The notes under the pieces were generated by a model. The model had not been told where the DNA came from and made no database searches. It was given only the letters and a program-made list of their open reading frames with translations. From Escherichia phage slur07: a stretch of 64,000 bases of DNA. The DNA is taken from the sequence record NC_028780.1; one strand, written 5' to 3'. Below are positions 32,707 through 34,514 of this stretch, piece by piece. How positions within the stretch are numbered: the stretch's first letter is position 1; each line of letters begins with the position of its first letter. The position numbers were made by a program, and so were the translations under genes.

Positions 32707-33312
32707 ATGAAAATGCAAAGTGATTTCAATTCAATGTTTGAAGAGTTCCAAAGACAAGTTGATGTTCCAGACCAATTACTAAATGCTCTTAAACGCATGG
32801 CAGAAGGACGTAATTACTATTGGAGCTCTTCATATGAAACTGATGAAAGTCTTTCTGGATTTTATAAAGGTAAAAAGTCTTTAATACGTCCTGGAATACT
32901 CATTAAAAGTATTGAATCAATTCATTCATTGACATGTGATTTTGATGTTGAATTTACTGATTTCATTTCTCCTGAATGGACAGTTTGTTATTTAAATGAC
33001 GATTATGATTATCTTGGCGTTTATAGTTTAAGTGACGCATGGTTTAAACGTAATTTACAAAAGTCAAATTTGTTCTATATTGATACTACGGTAAAATTTC
33101 AGGGAAAGAAATATTTCTTTACTCTTATAGTTGATTCTGAAACAAAACATGAAAATAAACGTATTCTTAGTAAAAAGAATATCTTGACTATTGTTGATGA
33201 TCTTTTTGATAAATTCGTGGAAAATCCCAATTTTGAAAGCGATTTATTATTAGAAAAATTTGTTAAGGAATGTAGAGAATATGTTAAAGCCATCACTATA
33301 CCTTCCAAGTAA
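32707..33312 (+). CDS. hypothetical protein
   Basis: 201 aa ORF with SD GGAG upstream. Confidence 0.55.
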   Translation: MKMQSDFNSMFEEFQRQVDVPDQLLNALKRMAEGRNYYWSSSYETDESLSGFYKGKKSLIRPGILIKSIESIHSLTCDFDVEFTDFISPEWTVCYLNDDYDYLGVYSLSDAWFKRNLQKSNLFYIDTTVKFQGKKYFFTLIVDSETKHENKRILSKKNILTIVDDLFDKFVENPNFESDLLLEKFVKECREYVKAITIPSK

Positions 33313-33673
33313 ACCTGTGAAGTATGAATTAAAGCGCCAGCTAATTCCTACTGATGTATTAATAGGTCCTGTGACAGCTATATCATTTGTAATTCTATTG
33401 ATTGTTGGAATGGTTATAGACTTTATGACTGATATTGAATCTGGCGTAATATTTTTGTTAGTATTAATTCTTCCATTAGTAGTTCCATTTTTATTGGTAC
33501 CTGTAAATTGGGTAGGATATTGGTATCAAGGAAGGCATTATCGTAAACGTGTACGTGAATGGAAAGCTCAGTGTAAAAAGATCAAAAAGGAACACCAGCT
33601 TAAACTAAATATGTATGAATTTAATGAAATTATGAAATTTGTTAAGGAATCACGATGCAAAAGCCAAAACTAA
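33281..33673 (+). CDS. small membrane protein (paralog 1 of 3)
   Basis: 130 aa from ATG 33281; two hydrophobic helices; C-terminal FVKESRCKS-type motif shared with the next two genes. Confidence 0.5.
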   Translation: MLKPSLYLPSKPVKYELKRQLIPTDVLIGPVTAISFVILLIVGMVIDFMTDIESGVIFLLVLILPLVVPFLLVPVNWVGYWYQGRHYRKRVREWKAQCKKIKKEHQLKLNMYEFNEIMKFVKESRCKSQN

Positions 33674-34029
33674 ATAAAGTCAAATATTCTTTTTCTGAGT
33701 CATTTTTAATTTTTGCTGTGGCGTTGGCTGCAGCTCTTGCTGGTAGTCTTATTGGATTAACGATTGACTGTATTATTTTAAACATCCGCAGTAACGTCAG
33801 CGGTATAGTAGATATAATAGAAGTTTGGAGTGAACTTCATTATACTATAGCAATTTCATTATTTTCATTCTTTGGTATTATTTTATATTTTCATTATGAT
33901 AATTTTAAAATAAATTGGCAAAGAAAAAAGGATTACAAAATACAATTAAAAGAATATAATAACTACATATCTTATATTGAAAATGAATCAATGAAAGAGT
34001 TTGTGAGTGATTGCAGGAAAATCAAATGA
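33655..34029 (+). CDS. small membrane protein (paralog 2 of 3)
   Basis: 124 aa; two TM helices; C-terminus EFVSDCRKIK; SD AAGGA. Confidence 0.55.
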   Translation: MQKPKLNKVKYSFSESFLIFAVALAAALAGSLIGLTIDCIILNIRSNVSGIVDIIEVWSELHYTIAISLFSFFGIILYFHYDNFKINWQRKKDYKIQLKEYNNYISYIENESMKEFVSDCRKIK

Positions 34030-34510
34030 TTTTAAAAACTCGCTGGTATGATTTAGATGATGGGGACGATGGCATTTCAGTCGATAGAGTTGACTGGAGC
34101 GGCTGTTCTGAAGATACAAAGAAACGATTAATTAGGGAGTTTAGAATGGGATATCAAGCAGTTAAGCCATCTACTGTAACAGATGATAAATTCGTGTGTA
34201 TTCAAAATGGTCGTGCTAAGTTAACGAACGCTGATTGGTTCACAGATAAGAAGGTTATTCTGTGGTATATTATTAGTTTTCCTGTGACATCATTTGTATT
34301 TTGCTTCTTTGGAGAAAGTCCAGTAGGCAGAACGGAAGATTGGATTCTTTTAATTATACTTGTTAATATTTTTACAGCAGCAGTACTATCAGGAATATGG
34401 TGCGTGTTCATTGAAATGCCATGGCGTTTACGCAGACAGCAAAAGATTTATGATGAAAAGAAATATGCTCAAAATTTAAATAGCTTTATCACTGAATGCA
34501 GGAAATTAAA

Positions 34511-34514
<4 letters not shown>
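34026..34514 (+). CDS. membrane protein (paralog 3 of 3)
   Basis: 162 aa from ATG 34026 (ATGA overlap); two TM helices; C-terminus [10 protein letters not shown]. Confidence 0.55.

Follow-up and report, generated by a model that had tools for sequence, protein, structure and literature searches.

Genes e.4, e.3 and e.2 of a T4-like phage encode predicted membrane hairpins that share a C-terminal motif with the soluble e.5 protein

Locus and gene identity

The stretch of DNA analyzed here (the window, 64 kb) belongs to the genome of a Tequatrovirus (T4-like phage), Escherichia phage slur07 (NC_028780.1), and harbors three consecutive open reading frames (ORFs) of 130, 124 and 162 amino acids (aa), whose products end in a short motif that is also found at the end of the soluble protein encoded just upstream, e.5. 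An original prediction, made from the letters alone, had described the three products as tandem two-helix membrane proteins with a common C-terminus; the coordinates of the ORFs were checked and proved exact (Table 1), and the C-termini were as quoted. The region 32700-35500 of the window shares 98% DNA identity with the phages vB_Eco_Geo and ime09 and is matched by 681 phage records, and its gene order, e.5-e.4-e.3-e.2-nudE-e, is syntenic with the annotated ime09 and T4 records. The comparison with the T4 e genes, which the prediction had pointed to, leaves hardly any doubt about identity and anatomy: the three ORFs are almost certainly orthologues of the T4 early genes e.4, e.3 and e.2 (UniProt P39222, P32274 and P32273).

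The e.4 product matched PHROG 2604 over residues 1-130 of 130 (E 2.7e-70) and showed 85.4% identity with T4 e.4 by tblastn, and all of its close homologues carry the precomputed Pfam assignment PF26873. The e.3 product gave a full-length match to PHROG 2330 (E 4.6e-61) and is 100% identical to the deposited phage slur07 protein, and that of e.2 gave a full-length match to PHROG 2203 (E 1.3e-77), with homologues assigned to PF26896. The full-length PHROG matches and the complete identity of e.3 indicate that the three ORFs were already catalogued; they are known T4 genes and represent no new kind of element. Searches with e.5, e.4, e.3 and e.2 in Pfam, NCBIfam, PADLOC and the sequences of the Protein Data Bank (PDB) returned nothing above threshold, and when Pfam matches of e.4, e.3 and e.2 were admitted up to E 0.1, the sole one was a sub-threshold QueT on e.3. 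Literature searches on the function of e.2, e.3 and e.4, the results of which were mostly noise, found no paper assigning a function. Several NCBI records name homologues of e.4 and e.3 "sulfurtransferase", a designation that was rejected owing to the absence of any Pfam or NCBIfam sulfurtransferase match. One NCBI record calls its e.4/e.3 homologue "DNA primase", and no Pfam or NCBIfam model backs this name. As neither is supported by such a model, both names look like propagated mis-annotations.

The genes are tightly packed, e.4 and e.3 overlapping by 19 nucleotides (nt), and e.3/e.2 as well as e.2/nudE overlapping in an ATGA. The overlaps and the coupling through to nudE are thus as originally described. 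The block does not, however, run directly into the endolysin gene e as had been proposed, since nudE and e are separated by a 37-nt gap holding two late promoters with the sequence TATAAATA, the consensus of T4 late promoters.

Table 1. Features of the e.6-e region, with positions in the window (SD, Shine-Dalgarno sequence; TM, transmembrane helix; RBS, ribosome-binding site)
Feature	Position	Strand	Remarks
e.6 orthologue, 197 aa	32072..32665	+	context gene that heads the conserved module
UUCG hairpin, GC-rich (AGGGGCTTCGGCCCCT), in the e.6-e.5 interval	32671..32686	+	invariant in 11 phages; terminator in the record of phage Lutter
e.5 orthologue, 201 aa, soluble	32707..33312	+	PHROG 2607, E 9e-108; motif FVKECR 33259-33276
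SD AAGGA of e.4, within the K-E codons of the e.5 motif	33265..33269	+	11 nt 5' of ATG 33281; RBS annotated at the equivalent position in phage 132
e.4 orthologue, 130 aa	33281..33673	+	TM1 33359-33421, TM2 33443-33508, cytoplasmic tail 33509-33673, motif FVKESR 33638-33655
SD AAGGA of e.3, within the K-E codons of the e.4 motif	33644..33648	+	6 nt 5' of ATG 33655
e.3 orthologue, 124 aa	33655..34029	+	TM1 33703-33774, TM2 33835-33894, tail 33895-34029, motif FVSDCR 34000-34017
AGG AAA ATC AAA TGA: R-K-I-K-stop of e.3, with SD (AGGA), 7-nt spacer and ATGA start of e.2	34015..34029	+	
e.2 orthologue, full-length, 162 aa	34026..34514	+	soluble N-terminal part, residues 1-76; TM1 34254-34313, TM2 34341-34412, motif FITECR 34485-34502
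AGG AAA TTA AAA TGA: R-K-L-K-stop of e.2, with SD, spacer and ATGA start of nudE	34500..34514	+	
nudE (e.1), Nudix hydrolase, last gene of the translationally coupled block	34511..34951	+	PF00293, E 4e-13
Two TATAAATA late-promoter motifs 5' of e	34955..34975	+	34955-34962 and 34968-34975; assigned from sequence
Endolysin gene e	34989..35477		separate late transcription unit, marked by the two late-promoter motifs

Membrane anatomy and topology

Kyte-Doolittle scans revealed two hydrophobic helices in each of the three proteins, at residues 27-47 and 55-76 of e.4, 17-40 and 61-80 of e.3, and 77-96 and 106-129 of e.2, in agreement with the prediction, and none in e.5. The soluble N-terminal domain of about 80 aa that had been noted in the third protein was found as a 76-aa part preceding the helices of e.2. 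The AlphaFold2 (AF2) model of e.2, which like all structure predictions in this work was made on a single chain, had a mean predicted local distance difference test (pLDDT) score of 50, and the N-terminal domain was not modeled. The interhelix loops of e.4, e.3 and e.2 comprise just 7, 20 and 9 residues. Each N- and C-terminal segment contains 4-15 lysine and arginine residues, and the loops, which are acidic, contain 0-1. From hydropathy and charge distribution, the proteins are predicted to be inner-membrane helical hairpins with both termini in the cytoplasm (N-in/C-in).

A C-terminal motif shared by four consecutive genes

A search of the window in all six frames gave five matches to the pattern F[VI].[DE][CS]R, four of which lie within the last 17 residues of consecutive genes, namely, FVKECR in e.5 (as part of KFVKECR), FVKESR in e.4, FVSDCR in e.3 and FITECR in e.2. 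At the DNA level, the version of the pattern with Cys gave three matches against 0.14 expected, and none of the 100 shuffles reached three. The motif is therefore more than a chance likeness, and the C-terminal similarity put forward in the prediction is significant. An account restricted to the three membrane proteins was nevertheless incomplete, as the soluble e.5 and the membrane proteins e.4, e.3 and e.2 end alike, the motif being the sole part that e.5 shares with the others. In T4, the stretches 1-50 kb and 100-169 kb contained no match to the Cys-version DNA pattern. The possibility that the motif tags T4 early membrane proteins in general was rejected, as it is absent from these T4 stretches and from the rest of the window.

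Overlap of the motif with ribosome-binding sites

The codons AAG-GAA (Lys-Glu) in the motifs of e.5 and e.4 constitute the AAGGA SD sequences of e.4 and e.3, respectively, and the stretch TGC-AGG-AAA-(ATC/TTA)-AAA-TGA at the ends of e.3 and e.2 provides an AGGA, a 7-nt spacer and the ATGA stop/start for e.2 and nudE. The independent record of phage 132 carries RBS annotations at exactly these positions. As the final R-K/K-stop codons double as SD and ATGA restart, the RK(I/L)K likeness of the C-termini is largely imposed by translational coupling. At position 56001 of the window, 1 of 19 plus-strand ATGA junctions, an unrelated gene has the terminal sequence FKKQLRKSLK-stop and overlaps the following start codon by its AGAAAGAG..AAAATGA. 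Such coupling can thus give rise to basic RK..K C-termini by convergence.

The whole C-terminal likeness could be devoid of protein function, i.e., a by-product of the embedded SD/ATGA coupling, perhaps with gene conversion between neighboring gene ends. The double use of the K-E, R-K and AAA-TGA codons, the LRKSLK end of the unrelated gene at 56001, and the DNA repeats at the gene ends (16 nt, exact, between e.5 and e.4; 30 nt, 80% identical, between e.3 and e.2) are all in line with this explanation, which is nonetheless very unlikely. An SD sequence needs none of F, [IV], C and R, yet these are the conserved positions. The motif codons vary (AGA, CGA, AGG or CGT for Arg; TGT or TGC for Cys), and the motif stands at a varying distance, five to eight codons, from the next start. 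In phage VR25 and a Jiaodavirus phage, the SD lies 3' of the motif, whose codons (AAA-GAA and AAA-TAC) are not SD-like; in these two phages and in RB43, the motif either stands apart from the following SD or is 30 residues away from the stop. The ratio of nonsynonymous to synonymous substitution rates (dN/dS) of the tails is also low, at 0.10-0.14 with dS of 0.16-0.24. As a full explanation, an RBS or gene-conversion artifact was hence rejected on codon turnover and cross-genus evidence; it accounts for RK(I/L)K and not for the core. Judged from these sequence comparisons, the core F-[IV]-x-x-C-[RK] is conserved at the protein level and is not explained by the RBS. A general caution follows: similar C-termini of overlapping phage genes can be imposed in part by RBS and ATGA, and codons as well as other genera should be checked before a motif is called.

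Conservation of the gene cluster in other genera

Other genera were reached by tblastn with e.4 and through the more widespread e.6 (1105 phage records). In all 10 genera sampled, e.6 is followed by an e.5-like protein with F-[IV]-x-x-C-[RK] in its C-terminal region: FVKECR in Tequatrovirus, FIMECR in Mosigvirus RB69, FIKECR in Gaprivervirus VR25, FIKYCR in Jiaodavirus, FINLCR in Moonvirus Merlin, FIAECR in Dhakavirus Bp7, FVDQCR in Enterobacter phage MY742, FVKMCR in Winklervirus CHI14, FVDYCR in Aeromonas Tulanevirus ZHF and FIHSCK in Pseudotevenvirus RB43. A five-genus alignment of e.5 (18-47% identity) contained nine invariant columns overall, and F185, C189, R190 and E191 formed its sole contiguous conserved block. 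One to three two-helix membrane proteins ending in the motif come next in 8 of the 10 genera. Their ends read FVKEIRC and FIKECRK-stop in RB69, FIKEVRN and FIKECKS-stop in VR25, FVMEMRK-stop and FIENCKNEK-stop in Merlin, FIKECKS-stop in Bp7, FIKNVRRK-stop in MY742 and FIKECR-stop in CHI14, and the Jiaodavirus phage carries the motif on three membrane proteins as well as on a soluble protein (protein 121) encoded 3' of its Nudix gene (FIAKCRAK-stop). Neither nudE nor e was found within 1.8-2.6 kb downstream of the cluster in RB69, VR25, Merlin, Bp7 and CHI14. The conserved unit thus consists of e.6, e.5 and the membrane hairpins, in this order, and not of membrane proteins beside a lysis gene.

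It appears, on balance, that the motif functions as a protein-level interaction helix, this being somewhat better supported than the contrary. A point that weighs on the other side is that e.4-type proteins often have S, I, V or M in place of the motif Cys.

In other genera, a second tandem family was observed 3' of the e.3-like gene, consisting of small soluble proteins that end in G-W-V-S-S-S-x-x-C-stop (ends GAWVSSPALC, GGWVASSHTC, QGWVSSSYSC and GAWVSSSEMC). In the compared stretches it occupies positions 3231-4026 in RB69, 3191-3764 in VR25, 4651-5435 in Merlin, 3511-3828 in L021 and 3632-3925 in L022, and it is absent from the window.

Paralogy and natural rearrangements

The tandem paralogy of e.4, e.3 and e.2 that had been proposed is plausible, and the sequence comparisons make it probable that the three are diverged tandem paralogues. 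Pairwise BLASTP among them gave weak similarity. With cross-genus profiles, hhalign returned a probability of 88% for e.4/e.3 (E 3e-6, 44 columns covering the juxtamembrane stretch and tail), 38% for e.3/e.2 (E 3.3e-4, 77 columns covering hairpin and tail) and 0.9% for e.4/e.2; e.4 matched protein 125 of Jiaodavirus at 56%. The scores of e.4/e.3 (39.6) and e.3/e.2 (29.1) exceeded those of all 60 block shuffles (means of 16.4 ± 4.7 and 12.6 ± 2.4, respectively) and of all 40 global shuffles. The e.4 and e.3 proteins also have a common N-terminus, M-x-K-P-x-L...VKY, and e.4 and e.2 have PVT..SFV in common at the start of TM1. Three points tell against common descent: profiles built from Tequatrovirus sequences only gave hhalign probabilities of 1-9% between the three families, PHROGs places e.4, e.3 and e.2 in three separate families, and the cross-genus profiles were built by hand from two to six sequences. 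The first of these values is attributable to the low number of effective sequences (Neff) in the profiles, which was only 1.2-1.6. A HMMER search of 1.84 billion representative proteins with the e.4 profile gave seven matches, which included no e.3 or e.2 except in the fusion protein P0098.

Several rearranged forms of these genes were encountered. P0098, from the complete phage vB_EcoM-UFV05, is a fusion of the N-terminal part of e.4 with the C-terminal part of e.2, without e.3, and has its junction at the shared TCCTGTGACA where TM1 begins. P0195 is an e.4 from which the whole membrane hairpin is precisely deleted. P0198, an e.3/e.4 tail chimera, comes from a short metagenome contig and could be a misassembly. 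The e.2 gene of the T4 reference, compared with ten other Tequatroviruses, has a 1-nt deletion followed about 80 nt later by a 1-nt insertion (alignment columns about 1945 and 2025; about 3470-3960 in the compared stretch of T4, NC_000866), resulting in truncation to 102 aa, an intact out-of-frame remnant of the C-terminal coding sequence and a 160-nt gap before nudE. The 102-aa form of e.2 is also present in other phages (cluster P0193, 22 members).

Selection, expression and dispensability

The dN/dS values were computed per segment by the Nei-Gojobori method on the block aligned from 11 Tequatroviruses. The cytoplasmic tails of e.4, e.3 and e.2 gave 0.14, 0.10 and 0.13, and the TM1-loop-TM2 hairpins 0.79, 0.40 and 0.55, respectively; e.5 gave 0.09 and e.6 about 0. 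The low values of the tails show that the genes are translated and constrained, with the constraint acting on the cytoplasmic tail. The hairpin evolves with almost no constraint, and purifying selection holds on the basic juxtamembrane stretch and on the C-terminal helix, which ends in hydrophobic-x-x-F-[IV]-x-x-C-[RK]. The hairpins, which showed indels and discrete allele types among Tequatroviruses, are either generic anchors or under diversifying selection. If the second case holds, their dN/dS of 0.4-0.8 might stem from a function embedded in the membrane and not from a passive anchor, a point that counts against the explanation favored below.

In a study of T4-infected E. coli (PMC9697503, supplement files 4 and 6), e.4 and e.5 have been classified as "early RNA, early protein," e.2, nudE and e.6 as "early RNA, middle protein," and e.3 as "early RNA, late protein," and proteomics detected the proteins of all these genes. 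Together with the dN/dS of the tails, this detection answers the question of whether the ORFs are translated. The T4 CRISPRi-ART knock-down screen (PMC11879866) places e.2 to e.6 and nudE in its file "nonfit guides of nonfit genes" (supplement file 25), i.e., among genes with no effect on fitness, and gives their prior essentiality as UNKNOWN (supplement files 15 and 25). The genes e.4, e.3 and e.2 are thus real and translated, and their accessory products can be dispensed with under laboratory conditions, with which the natural deletion and fusion variants (P0098, P0195 and the truncated e.2 of T4) agree.

Position beside e had led to the proposal of holin modulation. Only adjacency to e in Tequatrovirus and the membrane location speak for a role in modulating the holin or the timing of lysis, which is highly improbable and for which the expression and context data leave little room: the RNAs of e.4, e.3 and e.2 are early, the e.4 and e.5 proteins are early and the e protein late, e has its own late promoters, and in five other genera no e lies within 1.8-2.6 kb downstream of the cluster. 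In the T4 stretches compared, the lysis regulators t, rIII and sp are annotated elsewhere, and T4 rI is also located elsewhere. RI and T interact through a periplasmic domain, and e.4, e.3 and e.2 have no domain of this kind.

Superinfection exclusion or immunity had been proposed as well. The membrane proteins would then change the envelope in such a way that related phages fail to inject their DNA or to penetrate, as with T4 Imm and Sp, both of which act on the entry step. The three proteins are early, non-essential and predicted to reside in the inner membrane, the hairpin and loop are their fastest-evolving part with discrete, cassette-like alleles as expected in an arms race, and natural losses and rearrangements of the genes are frequent. 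No similarity to Imm or Sp was found, however: hhalign against T4 Imm gave 0.3%, 1.7% and 0.7% for e.4, e.3 and e.2, and against Sp at most 0.8%, the values ranging from 0.1% to 1.7% overall. The short predicted periplasmic loops and the purifying selection on the cytoplasmic segments are not what would be expected of exclusion factors that act in the periplasm, and the same conserved motif is present on the soluble e.5. Nothing positive points to exclusion, and this role is considered unlikely.

e.6 and the proposed mechanism

The e.6 gene, which is conserved together with the rest of the module, stands at its head and is served by an early-type promoter of its own. The single-sequence AF2 model of its product (pLDDT 74, above 90 at residues 40-130) showed a long helical hairpin, with additional helices after it. 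Foldseek against the PDB returned Vipp1 for all of the top ten matches, over the full length and with E of 2.4e-4 to 1.8e-2, and SynPspA, CdvB and CHMP2A/3 lower. BLASTP between e.6 and E. coli PspA, the latter sequence having been entered by hand, gave a colinear alignment of residues 38-183 with 38-179 (E 0.012). The fold of e.6 is hence predicted from modeling to be PspA/Vipp1-like. This assignment is opposed by the finding that e.6 had no Pfam PspA_IM30 match at E up to 1 and that phmmer against PDB sequences was empty.

The explanation favored here is that a short amphipathic helix, common to e.5 and the membrane-anchored tails, would be offered to one cytoplasmic partner, which the membrane proteins would tether or regulate at the inner membrane in the early phase of infection. 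Taken as a whole, it is tentative and falls somewhat short of an even chance. The best candidate for the partner would be e.6, owing to its place as co-conserved module head, its predicted hairpin, the Vipp1 matches and the colinear alignment with PspA; that e.6 is indeed what the tails dock on is a doubtful step in itself. PspA and its small partners PspB and PspC would serve as the model, the function being membrane maintenance or remodeling and not lysis. An extended form of this proposal is a conserved early three-part module in which a PspA/ESCRT-III-like e.6, the soluble e.5 and one to three hairpin adaptors, docking via the shared F-[IV]-x-x-C-R helix, would bring about a phage-shock-like stabilization or remodeling of the inner membrane, possibly against membrane-targeting abortive-infection effectors. 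This version is a rather unlikely one at present.

A role in counter-defence partly overlaps with the favored model. The membrane proteins, perhaps with e.6, e.5 and NudE, would here neutralize inner-membrane abortive-infection effectors or nucleotide signals. Being accessory, early, variable and dispensable on laboratory K-12, the genes have the profile of known T4 anti-defence genes in the HIDEN-SEQ study; in Tequatrovirus, their translation is coupled to that of a Nudix hydrolase, an arrangement also found in Jiaodavirus, and the role would be compatible with a membrane-protecting, PspA-like e.6. On the other hand, there is no homology to known anti-defence proteins, the PADLOC, Pfam and NCBIfam searches were empty, the main text of the HIDEN-SEQ preprint, in which RexAB, RnlAB, CBASS and DarTG were tested, makes no mention of e.x or nudE, and in most other genera the stretch of the cluster that was examined lacks nudE. 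Counter-defence is therefore judged improbable, to much the same degree as exclusion.

If the motif docks on e.6 and e.6 is PspA/Vipp1-like, T4-type phages would bring along their own membrane-maintenance machinery, which would bear on keeping the inner membrane energized and possibly on resisting membrane-disrupting defences. The gain is a testable handle on these T4 genes through a protein-level motif linking the soluble e.5 to the membrane proteins e.4, e.3 and e.2.

Neighboring features

Two near-identical terminator-like hairpins, AGCCCCGACC(G/A)AAAGGTTGGGGCT followed by a T-run, were observed at window positions 30566-30589 and 31125-31148, flanking the ORF 30644-31117, the product of which begins with MKSYAQFLNEA. 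The N-termini encoded by this ORF and by the ORFs 35474-35755 and 36240-36713 are of the type MK(S/T)Y(A/S/Q)(Q/E)F(L/I).E(A/S)..NEA, which is reminiscent of the sequence that targets T4 internal proteins to the capsid. The ORF 36240-36713 is labeled Ip4 in the ime09 record. Between e and denV, such ORFs are found in place of T4 ipII and ipIII.

Comparison with known systems

The three genes lie between e.5 and nudE in the same order and with the same overlaps as e.4, e.3 and e.2 of T4, from which the window differs in that its e.2 is intact (162 aa) and that of the T4 reference is truncated to 102 aa. T4 Imm and Sp are likewise small early envelope proteins that are non-essential in the laboratory, and the translated sequence of Imm has two hydrophobic stretches; Sp, however, is annotated as periplasmic in the T4 record, whereas e.4, e.3 and e.2 are predicted N-in/C-in hairpins without a periplasmic domain. 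As to the phage-shock proteins PspA, PspB and PspC, e.6 lacks a Pfam PspA_IM30 match and no PspC (PF04024) or PspB domain is found in e.4, e.3 and e.2, which have two helices in place of the one transmembrane helix present in each of PspB and PspC. Short C-terminal docking peptides, e.g., the sliding-clamp-binding motifs, would offer an analogy of logic only, their sequence being unrelated to F-[IV]-x-x-C-R: in both cases, one short end is carried by proteins with different bodies.

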